Virus genome (UHGV): UHGV-0170512
Length of the DNA: 11,320 bases
DNA from: a virus
Reading direction: 5' to 3' (one strand)
The translations under genes and the position numbers were made by a program. The notes beneath the pieces are model-generated. The model worked only from the letters and a program-made list of their open reading frames with translations, was not told where the DNA came from and searched no databases. Shown here one piece after another: positions 1,250 to 11,320 of this stretch. How positions within the stretch are numbered: the stretch's first letter is position 1; each line of letters starts with the position of its first letter.

Positions 1250-1863
1250 ATTTCCTCCGGAGAGCTTTAAACATGCATCGTGCGAACAACTTTAAGAAAA
1301 CGCGTTCGATGTCGAACAAAAAACACTCAATTCGACATGCAAAAAACAAATAACCATTAATAATCAATAAGATGCAAAGATGATGGTGGCCGATAAAAAT
1401 GCAAAAACTAGCCTTTTTCCGCGACGCTCCCGCCCCGTGGCAGGCCACCCCACCGGGAGGACCCGTCAGCCTGACAGCCATGACGAACGTCTGATACAGC
1501 GCCTTGCATGAATGGCATCGGGATAATCCAGAAAGGAATAGCATCGTGCCCACAAGAATCTGTGTGAGTATCCTGTTTCTTCCACCCCCGCACAGGACTG
1601 GCGAGCATGAGGGACAAACCCGCGAACCATAAACGCGGTAAAAACCCGGTGTGCATCGTTTTTGATTATTCCCGCACACTCTCGCAGAAGGAGTTCCCCG
1701 TCGGGCTACGGTCTCTGTTAATACGGGAATACGGCGACGATACAGCGCATGATGTGTCAGGCTTGAATACCTTTATCCGTTAAAAGGGATATCAGTTAAG
1801 TTATCCCGTGCAGGGTATAAGCCATTATCAAGCCCCCCGTAGATAGGCTTTGTAATGACATCT
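1250..1863. other. ~600 bp noncoding spacer between rha and the terminase genes, with ATGCAAA(A)AC direct repeats and short palindromes; candidate terminase-binding/packaging-control region or ncRNA
   Basis: Only Cys-rich, overlapping, Met-poor ORFs in the track (1239..1679, 1408..1656), judged spurious. ATGCAAAAAC at 1337-1346 and 1399-1408 plus ATGCAAAG at 1372-1379; near-palindrome GTTCGATGTCGAAC around 1303-1316 with TTCGACAT inverted copy at 1331-1338. Confidence 0.3.
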
Positions 1864-2388
1864 TCAATTAATCAGCAGTTCAGGCTGTGTCACCTGCAAG
1901 ATGTATTCATGCTCGACAGCCAGGACACGCTTCTCTTTCTTCCGTTCGTTCATTAACCGACTGCCGATCGTACCTTTCAGCTTTGAGCGTGTTTCTTTGG
2001 TGGCGTAGCGGTGCTGCATTTCTTCGCCAATTGCCATGCGGCGGCTCAGTTGCTCTGCCATCCAGTTGAATGCTGCGATATAGCTCTCCTTGATTGCCGC
2101 AGCAGCTTTCCCGGTGAACCCCATCACAACCATGATCCAGCCATCTTTCGTCAGGCTGTACATCGGGCGAACCTTGCCCTGCTCATCGATATAATCAGCC
2201 GACGCAAAATTGCGTTGGCTAAACTCACGCGAGCAATCAGCCTTAACCTGCTCGATTTTCCTGAGAACATCACCGTGTCGCTTGCCGAAGTACTTGGCAA
2301 TTTTTCTGGATGTGGTAACGACCTCTCCGTTTTTGGCTTGCACCATTTCTCGGAAGTCGAAGGCTGGAATAACTGAATGATTATTCAT
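1864..2388 (-). CDS. rha: Rha-family phage regulatory protein
   Basis: Track ORF 1864..2424 (GTG start); I prefer the internal ATG at 2388-2386 (MNNHSVIPAFDF...). Contains TTSRKIAKYFGKRHGDVLRKIEQ, the signature region of the Phage_pRha family as I recall it. The start choice between 2388 and 2424 is unresolved. Confidence 0.65.
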   Translation of the reverse strand: MNNHSVIPAFDFREMVQAKNGEVVTTSRKIAKYFGKRHGDVLRKIEQVKADCSREFSQRNFASADYIDEQGKVRPMYSLTKDGWIMVVMGFTGKAAAAIKESYIAAFNWMAEQLSRRMAIGEEMQHRYATKETRSKLKGTIGSRLMNERKKEKRVLAVEHEYILQVTQPELLIN

Positions 2389-2442
2389 AGCGTCTTTACC
2401 TTTTAGAAAGTGAGCCTGTCTCACAGAAAAGCCGCCCGAGAG

Positions 2443-2454
2443 AGGTCGCCACCT
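2443..2454 (-). other. cosN-like cohesive-end site (lambda-type)
   Basis: Minus strand reads CGTTATAGGTGGCGACCTCTCTCGGGCGGCTTTTC; lambda cos as I recall it reads CGTTACGGGGCGGCGACCTCGCGGGTTTTCGC. Shared CGTTA, GGCGACCTC and a CGGG..TTTTC tail; the 12-nt core AGGTGGCGACCT matches GGGCGGCGACCT at 10 of 12 positions. Lies between the lysis and head genes as in lambda. Confidence 0.45.
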
Positions 2455-2528
2455 ATAACGGCATTTCTCAGGCTCGCTTACTGAAAGGCTCTCGTTAATA
2501 TGCGCGTGAGATGCGCTGTGAAATTCAG

Positions 2529-2556
2529 ATATAAAAAGCCCCGCGAATGCGAGGCT
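2529..2556 (-). terminator. Candidate Rho-independent terminator downstream of Rz
   Basis: Imperfect GC hairpin (plus strand GCCCCGCGAATGCGAGGC, 2538-2555) followed on the minus strand by TTTTTAT (plus 2531-2537). Confidence 0.35.
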
Positions 2557-2729
2557 AAATCCTGGTATTTGTAATGACTGGCTCTTATTTCAACGCAGCC
2601 CCTTACCGCGCGCCAGATGCTCAACTTCAAGCATCAGCAATGAGATGTTTAATCTGGATTCACTCCAGAAGTGATCACCACCCTGTCTACAGAGCCAGAT
2701 GTGAAGGATGATGAGTAAAATTATCGCTA

Positions 2730-3212
2730 TCATCGAAGGCATTGCGTCCTGATATATTCCTGAAGCGTTCTCAGTGCTGTCTGGTCTCTGATGATTCCGT
2801 CCCGGATACCGAGAACGTTTCGTCCAGCAACTGGAGAGAGTTCGACGGTGGCATCATTGCCCATGCCGGAGGCGCTGGAGGTTTCGGCTGAGGATGGCAC
2901 AGGGCATTTTCCTTTGACGAGCACCCGACCACCATTATCAAGCTTGCGCCGAAGAGCATCATTTTCAGCTTTCGCATCAGCCAACTCCTTCGTGTATTTA
3001 GCATCGAGTACATCAGCAGCACGCTGGCGTTGCTGCATGTCAGTAATGGTGGCGGTCGCCTGCTTCAGCTCACTGACTTTTTTATCACGCTGTTCTTTGT
3101 AGGCGATGGCGTTATCACGGTAATGATTGACCGCCCACGACAGGCAGACGATGATGCAAATAACCAGAGCATAAATAATCGCGGCGACTCTGCTCACTGA
3201 TCTATCCCCCAA
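2730..3212 (-). CDS. Rz: Rz i-spanin (inner-membrane spanin subunit)
   Basis: 160-aa ORF; N-terminal segment [38 protein letters not shown] closely parallels lambda Rz ([39 protein letters not shown]), with coiled-coil periplasmic domain and C-terminal Cys. The true start may be a few codons inside the track ORF; it overlaps the endolysin 3' end. Confidence 0.85.
2771..2977 (-). CDS. Rz1: Rz1 o-spanin lipoprotein, embedded in the +1 frame of Rz
   Basis: Track ORF 2771..3022 trimmed to the internal start [22 protein letters not shown]; lipobox-like VVGC followed by a proline-rich segment ([11 protein letters not shown]) parallels lambda Rz1 (MLKLKMML...VVVGC...PPPPPAW). Lies entirely inside Rz. 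Confidence 0.75.
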
Positions 3213-3727
3213 CAGGCTAATGCGCTTTCCTGGTCACGACGAATAACCTGTCCATAGCAGTTATTTGAACGTATGCGGCAATCGCGCCCACCATCTTTTA
3301 TCCACCAGCGAATCGCCTCGCATGCACTCTTACGATCACCGGCATTCAGCCGCTTATAAAACGTCGACGGGAAACACTTACCGGGGCCAATGTTATAGGG
3401 ACAAAATGACGCTATACCCGCTTTCTGTGGTTCGGTCAGTGGTACTTTAATATTGCGCTCCACCCATGCCAGCGCCTTATCACGTTCAATAGCGTTAACC
3501 TGGTCGCATTTTTCCTTCGACAGCTTCATTCCCGGTATGACGGGCTTACCATCCACCATTGTGGCACCACGACAGATGGTCCATATACCGGAACCATCGC
3601 GGTATGCCGTAGTGTGGTTACCCTCTTTTTCATCCAGAAACTGGTCAAGTATTTGAGGAGCAGACGAGCCTGCAGCAATCAGCGCCAGAACGGCAGCCGA
3701 CAGGCCGTATCTGATTTTTGCGTTCAT
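3194..3727 (-). CDS. SAR endolysin (phage lysozyme, T4/P21 R-type, GH24) with N-terminal signal-anchor-release domain
   Basis: 177 aa. N-terminal hydrophobic, Gly/Ala-rich segment [16 protein letters not shown], then catalytic-triad spacing E-x8-D-x5-T in [16 protein letters not shown], parallel to the P21 R lysozyme. Sits in a lysis cassette next to a pinholin. Confidence 0.85.
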
Positions 3728-3790: not shown

Positions 3791-4141
3791 TTAAGGTTGT
3801 GATTCCGGAGGAGTCTTCAGAGAACCAGTAATTCTTCCTGGTAGCTTTCCTTTGTAGGTTATCCACACATTCTGCGCATCTAAAATTACGGGGCGCTTTT
3901 CCGGCGACTGCTCATCCCCTTCACATAACCCGGCAGCAACATCCAGGAAGACCTGTCTGATGCTCCTTCTGGCTGCTGCCTCATAAAACTCCAGCGCGGC
4001 ACCTTCAACACGGTCCAGCGAGATGTCCAGGTCAAAAATTTCACCGTCAAAGCGTTTTTTGTCCCGTAACGCTACAGTTACCGTAACTTTATTCTCAAAA
4101 TTGCGGATCCCTTTCACAATCAGTTCATAGTTTTGAGTCAT
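3791..4141 (-). CDS. Hypothetical protein between holin and endolysin (YdfR/DUF1327-like by position)
   Basis: 116-aa ORF with good SD (GGAGAG, 8 nt before the ATG at 4141-4139) lying inside the 3' end of the holin gene; 4-nt gap after the holin stop. A small gene (ydfR) occupies the same holin-endolysin slot in the K-12 Qin prophage as I recall; sequence-level family membership is not verified. Confidence 0.55.
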   Translation of the reverse strand: MTQNYELIVKGIRNFENKVTVTVALRDKKRFDGEIFDLDISLDRVEGAALEFYEAAARRSIRQVFLDVAAGLCEGDEQSPEKRPVILDAQNVWITYKGKLPGRITGSLKTPPESQP

Positions 4142-4145
4142 TGAA

Positions 4146-4361
4146 TTACTCTCCCCGTGCCGCCTTACGACGGTCCTCTCTGATTTTGAAATACAGGTTA
4201 GTCAGATATGTCAGCAGCCCAAACAGCAGACTTCCCAGCACGCCTATTGCCGCCCACTGAGACGGGGAAACCCTGTCCAGCAACTGCAGGAACCAGTAGC
4301 CCGTTCCCACCGCTGACGTGGTGTATGACACACCTGTTGTGATTTTTTCCATCTGGTCCAT
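4146..4361 (-). CDS. Pinholin, phage 21 S21-like (class II holin) with dual-start motif
   Basis: Track ORF 4146..4466 trimmed to the internal start [10 protein letters not shown]. The C-terminal two thirds, [51 protein letters not shown], are near-identical to P21 S21 as I recall it; 71 aa. Met1 and Met4 (MDQM) resemble the S21 antiholin/holin dual start. Confidence 0.85.
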
Positions 4362-4510
4362 ACCCCGTCTCCCGTTATCCGGAAGCTGACAACAATAAAA
4401 AAGCCACCAGTTAACTACTGATGGCTCTGATAACTCATGCAAGCGTCTCAGACGACCCACTGACACTACCGGTGAGTTTAACGATACCTTCCATTTGACT
4501 GGCTCACTTT

Positions 4511-5453: not shown

Positions 5454-5487
5454 GGAGTTTACTCACATCTGACAAAATCAATATAAA

Positions 5488-5509
5488 CAGCCCCTCCGGA
5501 GAGGGGCTG
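5488..5509 (-). terminator. GC hairpin, likely Rho-independent terminator for minus-strand transcription (possibly also stops the convergent plus-strand ORF)
   Basis: CAGCCCCTC-CGGA-GAGGGGCTG, 9-bp perfect stem; on the minus strand it is followed by TTTATATTGATTTTG. On the plus strand it sits 35 nt after the 5118..5453 stop but has no U-tract. Confidence 0.4.
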
Positions 5510-5900
5510 GAGAGTGGCGCTATGTGCCATTGCATGGTGCCGGGTGCCTCCCGGTGAATTCAGTACCAGCACCTGAATCCGCGATTATCCCATATACCTA
5601 CTCGCTGATTGCCCCTCCGCACAGGGGGATTCACCATGCCAGTTTCTTTTAACAAACTCCCCGCAAACCAGACAACAGTCAACCGCCTGAATTGTGAAGT
5701 ATTTAAAAATTTCTCCCGCTAACTGATACCCGGCTAACAGTCTGGCGTTTTCTTTTTCAGCAACGGAAAAGCAACAACCACCACACCTGCCACCAGCACA
5801 CCGTCAGCCAGCACTGACATTATCCGGCTGCTGCAATGCCATTCACAAAAACAGTAAGCAATCACTTTTTACCGTAACAGGTGATAATCCAGATATGTAT

Positions 5901-6364: not shown

Positions 6365-6441
6365 TGGCGCGTTGTACTGGATTCGAACCACTGACCGATT
6401 GCTTAGAAGGCAATTGCTCTGTCCTGCTGAGCTAACAACGC
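6365..6441 (-). tRNA. tRNA-Arg (anticodon UCU)
   Basis: Minus strand GCGTTGTTAGCTCAGCAGGACAGAGCAATTGCCTTCTAAGCAATCGGTCAGTGGTTCGAATCCAGTACAACGCGCCA: 7-bp acceptor stem, D arm GCTC/GAGC, anticodon loop CTTCTAA, T loop TTCGAAT, encoded CCA. One G:G mismatch in the T stem. Confidence 0.8.
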
Positions 6442-6454
6442 AGAATACCGATAA

Positions 6455-6531
6455 TGGACCACCATCGGGGACCCGAACTCCGCGCAACCAGCTTCGAAAG
6501 CTGGCGCTCTTTCCTGATGAGCTAATGGCGG
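6455..6531 (-). tRNA. tRNA-Arg (anticodon UCG)
   Basis: Minus strand CCGCCATTAGCTCATCAGGAAAGAGCGCCAGCTTTCGAAGCTGGTTGCGCGGAGTTCGGGTCCCCGATGGTGGTCCA: acceptor stem with one G:U pair, perfect anticodon stem CCAGC/GCTGG, loop TTTCGAA, encoded CCA. Non-canonical T loop TTCGGGT (G at position 58) and one A:C mismatch in the T stem. Confidence 0.7.
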
Positions 6532-6538
6532 TATGTGA

Positions 6539-6614
6539 TGGTGGCCCTTGCTGGATTTGAACCAGCGACCTGGCGATTATGAGTCGCTCGCTCTCACCAC
6601 TGAGCTAAAGGGCC
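6539..6614 (-). tRNA. tRNA with CAU anticodon (Ile2-type, ileX-like, or Met)
   Basis: Minus strand GGCCCTTTAGCTCAGTGGTGAGAGCGAGCGACTCATAATCGCCAGGTCGCTGGTTCAAATCCAGCAAGGGCCACCA: perfect acceptor and T stems, anticodon loop CTCATAA; closely resembles the E. coli ileX tRNA as I recall it. Confidence 0.85.
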
Positions 6615-7695: not shown

Positions 7696-8517
7696 CTATC
7701 GCGTTACCCTCTTTAACTGCCGCTCCGCCCATGCCTCTTCAATGTCAAACCGAACCACCAACGTATCGTAAAAGCGTTTCACTGATTTTTTCCACGTATC
7801 AAGCGTGATAGCACTCGTCACTTTGCGTATGGCATTAAATGCCTCCGTTGATGGTAGTCTTTCATAGCCCCGACCGCCACAACGCTGGCAGTTCCTGATT
7901 ACAGGCATACCCCGTTTTTCCGACTCTTCACGATGAATGGCAACACCACGCCCACGGCAGTCTTTACAGGCAGTGGAAATCTCCCCCTTCCCTTTACATT
8001 CAGGACAAGAAACTTTCACCACCTCCCGGATTTTTTTCCATTCTTCCCAGTAAGACGGATACACACCTTTCGTACACTTTGCCCATACCGGCGGCTTACC
8101 ATCCGGATACTGGACCTTGTTTGTAAAAACTACGCTTTCAATAAATTTTTCCCCATAGCAACAAGGGCACTGCTTTTTACTCGCTGCGCTGCGGGCATAA
8201 TCCTCAAAAGCGTACGAAGCCATAATGCGCATCACTACCGGTTTTATTTCTGCCGGAAGTTTTCTTAACGCCGCCACGCGATCGCACTGACTTAATGCAT
8301 AATCTGCCAGTAATTCTGTTGCCCGCGCCCTGTCATTCATACTAATACCCATTTTCCCCAGGAACGCAGAAAATCCCATCTCAGCCCGGTTTTGTGTCAT
8401 ACCCTGCGCAGCCATCACATCAGTGATGCTCAGCGCATCTTTTGACGTCGAGACGGATGCATCAGTCAGGCCTGGCGATTTTGGGGAATAGTATTTCGGT
8501 AAATCTTCCAGTCTCAT
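7696..8517 (-). CDS. Q-like late antiterminator (QuuQ-type, zinc-finger Cys pairs)
   Basis: 273-aa ORF with several CxxC pairs (CPCC, CPEC, CKDC, CQRC); positioned after rusA and before a promoter-terminator pair and the lysis genes, the canonical Q position. ATG overlaps the rusA stop (ATGA). Confidence 0.6.
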   Translation of the reverse strand: MRLEDLPKYYSPKSPGLTDASVSTSKDALSITDVMAAQGMTQNRAEMGFSAFLGKMGISMNDRARATELLADYALSQCDRVAALRKLPAEIKPVVMRIMASYAFEDYARSAASKKQCPCCYGEKFIESVVFTNKVQYPDGKPPVWAKCTKGVYPSYWEEWKKIREVVKVSCPECKGKGEISTACKDCRGRGVAIHREESEKRGMPVIRNCQRCGGRGYERLPSTEAFNAIRKVTSAITLDTWKKSVKRFYDTLVVRFDIEEAWAERQLKRVTR

Positions 8518-10397: not shown

Positions 10398-10553
10398 TTA
10401 CTCCTCAGGTTCGTAAGCTGTGAAGACAGCGACCTCCGTCTGGCCGGTTCGGATTCGTACCTCGCAGAGGTCTTTCCTCGTTACCAGTGCCGTCACTATG
10501 ACGGTTAAACAGATGACGATCAGGGCGATTAACATCGCCTTTTGCTGCTTCAT
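10398..10553 (-). CDS. hok: Hok-family type I toxin (HokD/RelF-like), 51 aa
   Basis: Hand-translated, below the ORF-track size cutoff: MKQQKAMLIALIVICLTVIVTALVTRKDLCEVRIRTGQTEVAVFTAYEPEE. Single TM segment and Hok/Gef signature; SD AGGAGAAG 6 nt upstream of the ATG. Confidence 0.85.
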   Translation of the reverse strand: MKQQKAMLIALIVICLTVIVTALVTRKDLCEVRIRTGQTEVAVFTAYEPEE

Positions 10554-10789
10554 AGCCTGCTTCTCCTTGACCTTTCGGTCCGTAAGAGGCTAATCTCTAT
10601 GTGTCGCATAGATATGGCCTCAGATTAATGTTAAGCGTCTTGCAGGACGCGTAATGTTAACTGGGGCTTTTCTCTATCTGCCTTTTGGTGTTCATGCCTG
10701 AGGCAGATAGCCTCAAGCACCCGCAGCAATTCTACTTAACTCACGTCACCTCGCCAATATGAAATCAATCAGAAAGGTGATCCATAAAA

Positions 10790-11320
10790 TCACTCCTTCT
10801 CTTCTTTTCCGTAGTGGAGTTGGCCAATTTTGATAAGAGGGCGCCCCTGAGATTTGCGGTGTAGATTGGTATCGCGCAGAGAATACACACAGCCACAATA
10901 TTCCTGCTGATAGAATTTTTCGCGCTTGCTGATTTCAATCATACGGGACGAGCCGCCCTGCTTGCGCCAGTTATAATCCCAGTACACCATACCCGGATAA
11001 TGCGCAACAGCTCGCCGCCCACACTCGTTAACCTGCTGCATATTTTTCCAGCGTGAAATGCCCAGTGAACTGCTGATCACACTGAAACCATTTTCAGCAG
11101 CGTACAACGCTGTCCGCTCAAAACGCATGTCAAAACACATGGTACAACGGATCCCCCTCTCAGGCTCCCATTCCATTCCTTTGGCACGTTCAAACCAGTT
11201 GTCGGTGTCGTAATCAGCATCGATAAACGGCACGCCGTGTTGTTCAGCAAAGCGAATATTTTCATCCTTACGAATTAAATACTCTTTCTGAGGATGAATG
11301 TTCGGGTTGTAGAAAAAGAT
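10790..11320 (-). CDS. Cys-motif protein, tentatively QueH/DUF208-like (epoxyqueuosine reductase family); 5' end beyond window
   Basis: Track ORF 10790..11233 (GTG) continues stop-free in frame to the window edge (..[42 protein letters not shown]..). Motifs FYNPNIHP, C-x2-C (CTMC) and YCGCVYS match my recollection of DUF208/QueH; the family call is not verified. Confidence 0.5.

Follow-up and report, generated by a model that had tools for sequence, protein, structure and literature searches.

We conclude with considerable confidence that the rha gene of this window (the whole stretch of 11,320 nucleotides analysed, from virus genome UHGV-0170512) is an ordinary late-region gene. It is an ortholog of phi80 rha, carried on a 670-bp accessory cassette between the terminator of the lysis genes and a predicted lambda-type cos site, and would be the last gene of the right arm. 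We infer that it encodes a winged-helix regulator whose expression depends on Q and is gated at the Shine-Dalgarno sequence (SD), and that a 12-mer resembling cos upstream of the gene is the tip of an RNA hairpin. The position of rha before the packaging genes is the already known norm. An initial annotation had flagged this norm as an anomaly and misplaced cos, and its claim now carries little weight. The RNA leader that precedes the gene may well belong to a family without prior description, except for a trace of it, the P22F RNA.

Identity and start of the rha gene

The open reading frame at positions 1864 to 2388 (minus strand) is intact, starts with ATG and encodes 174 amino acids followed by a stop codon. 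Judged by its sequence, it is a genuine member of the Rha family and the ortholog of phi80 rha. The product passes the curated threshold of the Pfam family Phage_pRha (PF09669) with 99.1 bits against a cutoff of 29.9 (E = 2.2e-28, amino acids 25-111), scores 113.8 bits against 45.95 with NCBIfam TIGR02681 (E = 3.9e-33), and matches PHROG 518, 'Rha-like transcriptional regulator', end to end (E = 1.2e-77). It is 72.8% identical to phi80 Rha over amino acids 1-173, which together with the three profile matches confirms the initial view that the gene is Rha-like. Identity reaches 99.4% with Rha of phiv205-1 and is about 37% with P22 ORF201 (amino acids 10-154). The protein also carries both marks of the late-operon phi80/P22 type, i.e. 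the YI(N/A)AFNWM motif and a C-terminal extension.

The N-terminal Phage_pRha domain (amino acids 25-111) is of the winged-helix type, and the product would thus be a DNA-binding regulator. The C-terminal 60 or so amino acids match no Pfam family, even at E ≤ 10. A profile-profile comparison with the P22-type ORF11CD3 tail, to which this C-terminus may be related, gave a probability of 97.7%, but the score is driven by the YINAFNWM end that the pRha domains share. The single-sequence AlphaFold2 model was unusable (pLDDT 38).

Several records use an upstream GTG as the start of rha. We rejected the reading of the leader as coding from the GTG at 2424, because variants of the leader contain indels that shift this codon out of frame; the ATG at 2388 is therefore the start. 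The alignments with P22 and other homologues begin at the methionine of this ATG, and the annotated start of P22 ORF201 appears to lie 23 codons too far upstream. In annotation, the start of rha should thus be placed at the ATG and not at the upstream GTG. The founding rha gene is that of phi80 (Mozola & Friedman 1985; Henthorn & Friedman 1995, pmid 7768817; as cited in PMC4936722 and PMC8951638). The sole known phenotype of phi80/P22 Rha is a block of phage growth in IHF-deficient (himA/hip) hosts (PMC4936722).

Gene order and the position of rha

The order on the minus strand is Rz, terminator, rha, cos, terS and terL. The i-spanin gene Rz (2730-3212, minus strand; Pfam Phage_lysis, E = 7.6e-29) is the last lysis gene upstream of the cassette, and a lipobox (LIMVVGC) in the translation suggests an embedded Rz1 lipoprotein frame at about 2771-2977. 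The end of Rz overlaps an ORF of 50 amino acids (2590-2742, minus strand; PHROG 11822, E = 8.6e-38), annotated as a hypothetical protein and kept in the rha-less phages mEp460, Ayreon and PhiR40_1. The terminator scan placed an intrinsic terminator at the close of the lysis cassette, with the hairpin AGCCTCGCATTCGCGGGGCT followed by TTTTTAT (2537-2556, minus strand). In phi80 and HK639, the homologous hairpin, which aligns with that of the window, carries a terminator annotation. Between rha and cos lies a right-end segment (1441-1860, minus strand) that is common to phages with and without rha, being 94-99% identical to mEp460_4F5, PhiR40_1, Ayreon and 2B8, and that has no terminator on the minus strand. 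An antisense ORF of 58 amino acids in this segment (1607-1783, plus strand) has no Pfam match. The initial annotation rightly put rha ahead of the terminase genes, since Pfam identifies both downstream on the same strand: terS (758-1249; DUF1441, E = 4.6e-44), of the type found in mEp460 (where it is annotated as terminase small subunit), Gifsy-2 and Fels-1, and the 5' part of terL (1-758; GpA_ATPase, E = 3e-64), of the lambda gpA type, which runs off the window.

This location was initially regarded as odd. In phi80 and P22, which carry the eponymous rha genes, rha occupies the same slot between lysis and packaging genes, as it does in HK639, 2B8, phiv205-1, the E2348/69 prophage and the Stx2a phage phi191. 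Rz lies 201-349 nt upstream of rha on the same strand in all 75 IMG/VR loci that include upstream DNA, and the packaging modules downstream of rha in these loci are of several kinds, two with cos and at least two without. The cos pattern described below was found in 33 IMG/VR loci, in every one of them downstream of rha. The stretch made of terminator, leader, rha and flank is present in 141 complete E. coli genomes (at least 80% coverage). The P22 gene has been described as a late-operon gene (PMC4936722). The arrangement is thus standard in this phage group, which is the outcome that the initial annotation had itself named as speaking against an odd placement.

The accompanying premise was that Rha regulators usually reside in the early or immunity region. 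Rha-domain proteins adjoining cI do exist, for example Rha or Rha/Ash upstream of cI in the 'Eru' Stx phages (PMC8951638). Among the phage matches of the window protein, however, those from early regions show lower identity, of about 49% or less, and in several the match is limited to the N-terminal domain. The gene had also been assigned to the end of the late transcript, but its place is between lysis and head genes when the DNA is circular or concatemeric.

The predicted cos site

A lambda-type cos is predicted at 1424-1464, between rha and terS. A search for the composite of cosQ (GGGTCCT), a 22-nt spacer and cosN (CG/GGGCGG..., the slash marking the nick) returned one match in the window and none in 200 shuffles. 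The match comprises cosQ at 1458-1464 (minus strand), 22 nt upstream of the predicted nick, and the predicted cohesive end of cosN, GGGCGGGAGCGT, at 1424-1435 (minus strand), with CG on both sides (1422-1437). Compared with the 12-nt end sequence of lambda, which is the same as the annotated phi80 end, the predicted cosN differs only at bp 7, 8, 9 and 11, and keeps the left half GGGCGG and the CG flanking both nick positions. This is the pattern of lambda-like phages, in which cosN variation is confined to bp 7-12, the CG flanks are conserved and the 7-bp cosQ is highly conserved (PMC4669245). Both phi80, within its annotated cosQ region, and 2B8, at its right end, have the GGGTCCT heptamer too, with a spacer of 23 nt to the nick against 22 nt in the window, and the flanks agree with those of these two ends. 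The record of the related phage mEp460_4F5 ends and begins at window positions 1441/1440, which is 5 nt away from the nick as placed by the lambda analogy. The record of mEp460 (NC_019716) was discarded as a reference for the ends, as it opens arbitrarily at the ATG of terS.

The region between cosN and the start of terS (1250-1423, minus strand) is the presumed cosB, to which TerS would bind by analogy with lambda, where cosB has to adjoin cosN (PMC4669245). An 8-bp inverted repeat (ATGTCGAA/TTCGACAT) is present there, together with repeats of ATGCAAA(A). The exact IHF consensus, WATCAANNNNTTR, is absent from the cos region, the leader and the spacer between rha and cos, and hence our analysis ties IHF to neither cos nor the leader.

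As cos lies about 430 bp downstream of rha, the gene would close the right arm once the chromosome is packaged in linear form, and would not be the first gene after cos as initially described. In lambda, the end of the right arm leaves the capsid first. The suggestion that rha is the first gene to enter the cell thus keeps some ground, because the gene is near the analogous leading end, but for the opposite reason: it is the last gene before cos, not the first one after it.

The initial annotation mentioned a cos-like site upstream of rha and gave no coordinates for it. We took it to be AGGTGGCGACCT (2443-2454, minus strand), the only cosN-like 12-mer upstream of the gene, which agrees with lambda cosN at 10 of 12 positions. 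With a cos at this place, the left arm would begin with rha as an unusual, displaced regulator between cos and terS, and we find this extremely improbable. The two mismatches are both in the functionally critical left half of cosN, the flanks are TA and CT instead of CG, and there is no GGGTCCT upstream. The number of cosN-like 12-mers in the window at up to three mismatches is that expected by chance (7 observed, 7.3 expected). Such a search is uninformative on its own and misses the real site, which has four differences in the right half, and this is why we used the composite. In phi80 an identical 12-mer precedes rha, some 2.5 kb in from the annotated genome ends, and it is likewise internal in HK639 and 2B8, whose records end at cos elsewhere. 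It lies some 1.2 kb from terS, whereas cosB must adjoin cosN (PMC4669245), and a complete cosQ-cosN is found at 1424-1464. Across relatives, the two halves of the 12-mer change in step, as expected of an RNA stem (AGUC/GACU, AAGC/GCUU, UGCU/AGCA), while the GGCG loop between them is conserved. The 12-mer is the apical stem-loop of the rha leader hairpin (AGGU-GGCG-ACCU), and not a cos. These results have two consequences for annotation: the cos of phages with a DUF1441-type terS can be placed by the signature cosQ-N22-CG/GGGCGG, and GC-rich near-palindromes that resemble cosN arise by chance.

The rha cassette

The leader and rha together form a cassette of 670 bp (1861-2530, minus strand) that is present or absent as a unit. 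In the rha-less phages PhiR40_1, mEp460 and Ayreon, blastn joins window position 2531 straight to 1860, and many E. coli prophages with about 99% identity elsewhere lack the cassette as well. It starts right after the T-run of the lysis terminator. All 79 rha loci with upstream DNA have the leader, and none of the rha-less relatives does. The same slot carries other cargo in some relatives, for example KilA-N genes in HK620 and JLK-2012.

The initial annotation suggested that rha is an inserted moron. Morons, a concept of Hendrix and Juhala, are exemplified by lambda bor and HK97 gp15. The clean presence or absence of an accessory gene between conserved late-region neighbours is shared with the lambdoid morons. 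The likeness stops there, as an own promoter and a downstream terminator were not detected and the cassette is apparently part of the late transcript. A simple consensus scan of positions 1200-2800, which makes for a weak negative, gave no sigma-70-like promoter. A simple scan for terminators gave none downstream of rha on the minus strand before cos, the only terminator-like sites of this strand being 2537-2556 and 1303-1318 (in the presumed cosB). On these results, the cassette falls outside the definition of a moron.

A true moron would have its own promoter in the 40 or so nucleotides between the terminator and the long hairpin of the leader, and would be expressed from the repressed prophage to act on host gene expression. 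Several observations would fit. Presence or absence between phages otherwise 99% identical is a hallmark of morons, the upstream terminator would insulate the cassette from the lysis genes, and the conserved GCGC-N7-GCGC might serve as an operator, with the A/T-rich hexamer behind it (TATTAA or the like) as a -10 box. The promoter scan used simple consensus matching, so that a weak promoter, or one of a non-sigma-70 kind, may be present in 2489-2530 and expression from the prophage is conceivable. However, only about 15-20 nt separate the T-run of the terminator from the conserved GCGC element, the P22 gene is placed in the late operon by the literature (PMC4936722), and the sequestration of the SD by the leader points to restrained rather than constitutive expression of rha. 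Together with the results of the two scans, this makes a moron unlikely. We favour the late-region reading, by which rha would be transcribed within a Q-antiterminated late transcript that reads through the lysis terminator.

The rha leader

The leader is a conserved non-coding element of about 130 nt, which matches our covariance model R1 at 2386-2530 (minus strand). It starts with a small hairpin (2502-2516, minus strand), made of GCGC, a 7-nt loop and GCGC, which is paired in 100% of the cells of the alignment and has compensatory CGCC/GGCG variants. A long imperfect hairpin follows (2399-2488, minus strand), with a 5' arm at 2458-2488 and a 3' arm at 2399-2435. At its base, CCUUU (2484-2488) pairs with the Shine-Dalgarno sequence of rha, AAAGG (2399-2403).

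The leader is better conserved than the protein that it precedes. Positions 2389-2516 are identical to phi80 at 128 of 128 nt, while the coding sequences are 73.6% identical. In other relatives, the leader is 76-91% identical where the coding sequence is 42-58% identical. The minimum free energy fold has a z-score of -3.39. In an alignment of 44 leaders (A6), which was fitted to the model so that its pair counts are inflated, 95.1% of the cells are paired, against 39-46% when the partners are slid, and 33 of 34 pairs show compensatory changes, against 4-13; none of 500 shuffles reaches the observed values. The RNAalifold consensus has 31 pairs, each of them supported by compensatory changes. 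Alignments made with MAFFT only agree with the covarying structure, apart from that of the 25 most divergent leaders, where the 3' arm is misaligned and RNAalifold recovers just the middle helix. Because of this misalignment, we added a folding test that is free of alignment. Folding each leader by itself paired the SD window to a 5' arm over 60 nt distant in 43 of the 44 cases, at a median z of -3.2. All 44 copies in A6 end at a fixed distance from the ATG, with the SD inside the basal helix. The apical and internal loops also show more sequence conservation than base pairing would demand.

Leader copies are also found in the same register before phi80 gp49, a P22_AR_N gene of phi191 and a gene encoding pRha+ANT, and an N15 gp59-like gene is among the accessory genes that the leader precedes. 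Most of the more distant relatives in our genome scan, largely from outside Enterobacterales, lack it. Searching positions 1200-2800 against Rfam at the gathering threshold and at E ≤ 1 gave chance-level matches only (a eukaryotic lncRNA and a miRNA model), and the leader has no sequence or model similarity to any family of Rfam 15, IsrK included. Our search of the literature for a described rha leader or motif returned nothing besides P22F, a discrete and abundant sncRNA of 89 nt found in P22-infected cells and in vesicles, which is uncharacterised and for which an IsrK-like role was suggested (PMC13397905, 2026). P22F maps exactly onto the long hairpin of the leader. The P22 copy of the leader scores 64 bits against the leader model (E = 2e-12).

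These structures and their conservation suggest that the hairpin probably limits the synthesis of Rha, whose translation would be held down by the sequestration of the SD in the long 5' hairpin. On balance, and from sequence comparison, we lean towards the view that the leader represents a widespread, undescribed family of portable cis-acting RNAs that sequester the SD and carry a GGCG loop. They would gate potentially toxic DNA-binding accessory genes (Rha, pRha+ANT, P22_AR_N, N15 gp59-like) in the region between lysis and packaging genes of temperate phages that infect Enterobacterales and certain other Gammaproteobacteria.

Alternative roles of the leader

The accumulation of P22F as a discrete RNA covering the hairpin, with the IsrK-like role proposed for it (PMC13397905), raises the question of whether the leader acts mainly in trans, or has a dual function like IsrK of Gifsy-1, with the hairpin being released to act on other transcripts. 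The conservation of the loops beyond pairing would fit such a role, and P22F itself could be either a stable decay fragment or a trans-acting RNA. Yet, the SD is found in the basal helix at a fixed distance from the ATG in 44 of 44 leaders (A6), or in 43 of 44 when no alignment is used, and a portable cis element would be expected to recur, as the leader does, in the same register before other accessory genes. We thus regard a mainly trans-acting leader as rather unlikely. Even less probable is that the conservation stems from a recent recombination event or from a site that acts as DNA, be it a 'linker' at a module boundary or a protein-binding site. The leader is indeed 100% identical in phages with differing flanks, the left boundary of the cassette abuts it, and mosaic joints of lambdoid phages often coincide with conserved short sequences. 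But divergent leaders keep their pairing by compensatory double changes at nearly every helix position, which conservation at the DNA level does not predict, and the leader RNA has been observed in vivo in P22.

Gating of rha by its leader has implications for the function of Rha. If true, the leader could supply what has been missing for 40 years in the explanation of the Rha/IHF phenotype, which would result from the over-production of Rha when the gate fails. An element better conserved than its protein gives a testable handle on how phages restrain Rha, and suggests what the orphan P22F RNA might do at the level of function.

Comparison with known systems

The closest parallel is phi80, which has the same order of Rz/Rz1, terminator, leader, rha and then cos. 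Unlike the window, where some 430 bp separate rha from cos, phi80 has four more ORFs (about 1.8 kb) in this interval, and its packaging module is of the lambda Nu1 type, whereas terS of the window is of the DUF1441 type. In P22, ORF201 (rha) lies between the lysis gene 15 and the terminase gene 3, and shares with the window gene the N-terminal pRha domain and the leader family. The C-terminus of ORF201 is an ORF11CD3 domain, whereas that of the window Rha is without a Pfam match, and P22 uses pac/headful packaging and has no cos. The Rha proteins of early or immunity regions and the Ant-type antirepressors share the Phage_pRha winged-helix domain. These Rha proteins differ in subfamily (about 49% identity or less) and genomic position, and are often fused to ANT or Ash. 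As for the leader, structured phage mRNA leaders include that of lambda cIII and the RNase III hairpin of the N leader. The isrK-orf45 leader of Gifsy-1 (PMC13397905) resembles the rha leader in having a stable 5' structure that covers the ribosome-binding site of a regulatory gene whose product may be toxic.

Identity and surroundings of rha

All features described here lie on the minus strand unless stated otherwise. On that strand, the window corresponds to the late region of a lambdoid prophage. It encodes a Q antiterminator (7696-8517), three tandem tRNA genes downstream of Q (6368-6614), a holin (4146-4466), a DUF1327 gene (3791-4141), a lysozyme (3194-3727), Rz (2730-3212), a 50-aa ORF overlapping the 3' end of Rz (2590-2742; PHROG 11822, function unknown) and conserved in mEp460, Ayreon and PhiR40_1, an intrinsic terminator retrieved by a terminator scan (2537-2556), rha (1864-2388, 174 aa), a DUF1441-type terS (758-1249) and the start of a gpA-type terL (from 758 downward). 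tRNA genes in this location, downstream of Q, are a frequent feature of lambdoid late regions, those of Stx-like phages among them. The Q protein has a DnaJ-type CXXCXGXG zinc-finger region besides its Antiterm domain, and the Rfam sRNA STnc100 has a full-length match (132 bits) at 5479-5668, between Q and the holin. Beside the DUF968 and RusA genes, 10398-10722 contains a toxin-antitoxin pair: a 51-aa toxin ORF of the hok family and a full-length match to the sok antitoxin RNA (108 bits). A QueH-like ORF (epoxyqueuosine reductase, 10790-11233) matches only positions 57-174 of the 175 in its profile and appears to be N-terminally truncated.

The product of rha matches Pfam Phage_pRha at residues 25-111 (E=2.2e-28, 99.1 bits for a cutoff of 29.9), NCBIfam TIGR02681 (E=3.9e-33) and PHROG 518 'Rha-like transcriptional regulator' (E=1.2e-77); the PHROG match is full-length. 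Its amino-acid identity is 72.8% to the Rha of phi80, the phage where rha was defined, 99.4% to that of phiv205-1 and approximately 37% to P22 ORF201. At the level of sequence, these matches establish the gene as rha, in agreement with the initial annotation. The start at the ATG at 2388 is also confirmed, since P22 and other homologues align from the Met that it encodes. Several database records start rha at the GTG at 2424, which we rejected because indels in leader variants put it out of frame; the GTG starts of phi80, HK639 and phiv205-1, equivalent to 2424, look 12 codons too long. The start annotated for P22 ORF201 (2405-2476 in our P22 locus, L010) lies upstream of an internal ATG at 2474. 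It is probably 23 codons too far upstream, given that the leader model described below stops at the internal ATG and that all homologues align from that Met.

The C-terminal ~60 residues of Rha have no Pfam match even at E<=10. Their alignment with the ORF11CD3 tail of P22-type proteins is colinear, but its score is driven by a YINAFNWM motif common to both, so the tails may or may not be homologous. The single-sequence AlphaFold model of Rha was unusable (pLDDT 38).

A conserved leader RNA pairs with the Shine-Dalgarno of rha

The leader of rha, the ~130 nt from the terminator to the ATG, is the sole element of this analysis that deserves follow-up. It is non-coding and unusually conserved. 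Between phi80 and the window, nucleotide identity is 100% in the leader (128/128) and 73.6% in the coding sequence. The corresponding values are 91% and 58% for L118 (Enterobacter), 87% and 56% for L121, 85% and 53% for L145 (Rouxiella), 81% and 42% for L158, and 76% and 50% for L157 (Raoultella). Two hairpins make up the predicted fold, a small one on the 5' side (2502-2516) and a long, imperfect one (5' arm 2458-2488, 3' arm 2399-2435), at the base of which CCUUU pairs with the rha Shine-Dalgarno AAAGG (2399-2403).

When 18 leaders were aligned with MAFFT, 96.6% of the cells were paired and 7 pairs showed double changes, against 44-50% and 0-2 with slid partners. With a covariance model built from this alignment, we recovered 44 distinct sequences that carry the element directly 5' of the ATG, including P22, phi80 and prophages of Erwinia, Yersinia, Xenorhabdus, Providencia, Gilliamella and Halomonas. 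Among these, 95.1% of the cells are paired (39-46% when slid), 33 of the 34 pairs have compensatory changes (4-13 when slid) and the covariation score is 0.555 (against 0.05-0.11); the observed values were reached in none of 500 shuffles. Independently, RNAalifold gave 31 pairs, every one with compensatory changes. As the 44-sequence alignment was fitted to the covariance model, we tested the structure in two further ways. When 25 divergent leaders were aligned by MAFFT without structural information, the middle helix was still recovered, with 8 of its 10 pairs compensatory. When the 44 leaders were folded individually, 43 paired 4 nt or more of the Shine-Dalgarno window with an arm located over 60 nt further 5' (median z=-3.2). 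Both the structure of the leader and its pairing with the Shine-Dalgarno are conserved.

No family of Rfam 15 matches this RNA. The covarying, Shine-Dalgarno-sequestering element spans 2386-2530 in the window and 2324-2476 in P22 (L010), and has two copies in phi80 (L002; 3027-3170 and 4620-4747) and in the Stx2a phage phi191 (L170; 1491-1642 and 2856-3003). The copies that do not belong to rha precede a few other accessory genes, several of them DNA-binding, in matching register: phi80 gp49 (N15 gp59-like), a P22_AR_N gene of phi191, a pRha+ANT antirepressor gene (L140) and an HNH/AP2-like ORF (L027). We found relatives of the window Rha on 438 IMG/VR contigs and examined the best 80, each at least 98% identical. 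Every one of the 79 IMG/VR rha loci with upstream sequence has the leader, and no rha-less relative has it; the leader is thus part of the rha cassette.

A 2026 small-RNA study described P22F, an abundant 89-nt P22 RNA (21301-21389) with 'no known function', whose 3' end lies 6 nt from the rha start (PMC13397905). Its coordinates coincide exactly with the P22 copy of the long hairpin, which indicates that the hairpin RNA forms in vivo. P22F may be a decay or processing product. One may envisage that Q-modified polymerase reads through the terminator after Rz to transcribe rha and that the leader holds its translation low, which would make sense because Rha can abort phage growth. Some trigger would then open or destroy this gate; temperature, processing by RNase III or RNase E, and a protein bound to the conserved loops are candidates.

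The predicted cos lies between rha and terS

The initial annotation made rha the first gene after a cos-like site, for which it gave no coordinates. We took this site to be AGGTGGCGACCT (2443-2454), since no other 12-mer upstream of rha resembles cosN. It departs from lambda cosN at 2 positions, both within the critical left half, and its match is at chance level: the window contains 7 matches of comparable quality for 7.3 expected, among them a better one (11/12) at 11009-11020, inside the QueH-like ORF. It lacks CG flanks and cosQ, and it is identical 5' of rha in phi80, HK639 and 2B8, remote from the record ends. We therefore rejected it as cos. The 12-mer is the apical stem-loop AGGU-GGCG-ACCU of the long leader hairpin, and the covarying stem pairs AGUC/GACU, AAGC/GCUU and UGCU/AGCA around an invariant-looking GGCG loop fit an RNA stem, not cosN.

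From 1464 to 1422, the minus strand reads GGGTCCT-N22-CG/GGGCGGGAGCGT/CG. The annotated phi80 end, where the cosQ region precedes the 12-nt sticky end GGGCGGCGACCT, and the right end of phage 2B8 share this architecture. The composite cosQ-spacer-cosN pattern matches once in the window and in 0 of 200 shuffles. The predicted cohesive end differs from that of lambda only at bp 7, 8, 9 and 11. According to Feiss and colleagues, natural variation in bp 7-12 is common among lambda-like phages, Gifsy-1 differs at 8, 9 and 11, and both the 7-bp cosQ and the CG dinucleotides on either side of the nicks show high conservation (PMC4669245). The predicted cos agrees with all these traits, and its signature places it between rha and terS. 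No exact IHF consensus occurs in cos or in the leader. The record of mEp460_4F5, a related phage that also has a DUF1441 terS, has its last base at window 1441 and its first at 1440, which is 5 nt ahead of the predicted nick; that of 2B8 ends with ...GGGCGGT and begins with GACCT... These consecutive accessions (LR5958xx) are broken inside cosN or a few nt beside it, off the nick, and their termini are thus approximate.

The initial annotation was therefore half right: rha is real and ahead of terS, and cos was misplaced. With cos at 1422-1464, the right arm of the virion chromosome would have rha as its final gene. In the circularised DNA, rha lies between the lysis and head genes within the late transcript, not at the end of that transcript as had been proposed. 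In lambda, the right end is packaged last and ejected first. By this analogy, and with the cosB end of lambda packaged first (PMC4669245), rha would indeed be near the first-entering DNA, but for the opposite reason to the one originally given. Early entry has no obvious consequence for a late gene.

The ~420 bp between rha and cos (1441-1860) are 94-99% conserved in phages with or without rha, alongside both lambda-type and DUF1441-type packaging. They contain a 58-aa ORF on the plus (antisense) strand (1607-1783), annotated as hypothetical in PhiR40_1 and lacking a family match. The segment may extend the cosQ side as a packaging or termination region, or it may be a small gene.

rha is carried by an accessory cassette

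In PhiR40_1, mEp460 and Ayreon, and in many E. coli prophages with flanks ~99% identical, window 2531 is joined directly to 1860. Positions 1861-2530 are thus a clean 670-bp cassette, which begins directly after the T-run of the terminator and ends 3 nt past the rha stop. The slot is empty in some relatives and occupied by other cargo in others (for example KilA-N genes in HK620 and JLK-2012). The earlier suggestion of an inserted moron survives in a weakened form, as an accessory cassette. A consensus scan found no sigma-70-like promoter in 1200-2800 and a scan of the rha strand found no terminator between rha and cos; moreover, the conserved leader follows the terminator after only ~15-20 nt. 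The cassette thus falls outside the classical definition of a moron as an autonomous transcription unit. The simplest reading is that the Q-dependent late transcript includes rha as an accessory gene, although a weak promoter inside the cassette is possible.

Position of rha in related phages

The initial annotation regarded the position of rha as unusual. Synteny refutes this by the criterion that the annotation itself had set, as the arrangement is standard in the phage group. The order is Rz/Rz1, terminator, rha, four ORFs and cos in phi80; gene 15 (Rz), ORF201 (rha), ORF80 and gene 3 (terS) in P22; Rz, terminator and rha in HK639; Rz and rha, the last gene before the end, in 2B8; an Rz homologue (unnamed in the record), rha and packaging genes in phiv205-1; and lysis protein (Rz) and Rha in phi191. 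A prophage of EPEC E2348/69 matches the window, with lysis protein (Rz), Rha, DUF1441 terS and terL. Among the best 80 of the 438 IMG/VR loci, Rz lies 201-349 nt upstream of rha on the same strand in all 75 with upstream DNA. Downstream, the packaging module has a lambda Nu1-type terminase in 27 of the 80, a P22 gp3-type terS in 10 and a DUF1441 terS in 7, while 20 have an HNH endonuclease and/or a phiv205-type terL. The cosQ-cosN pattern follows rha in all 33 of these 80 loci that show it and precedes it in none. The stretch of terminator, leader, rha and flank occurs at a coverage of at least 80% in 141 of 5426 complete E. coli genomes.

The placement of rha between lysis and packaging genes is already known from phi80 and P22. 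P22 rha has been described as belonging to the late operon, and its product as detrimental to lytic growth when IHF is lacking (PMC4936722). Some Rha-domain proteins are encoded beside cI, as in 'Eru' Stx phages (PMC8951638). Among the phage matches, the early-region Rha-domain proteins are more distant, with ~49% identity or less to the window Rha, and in several the match covers the N-terminal domain only.
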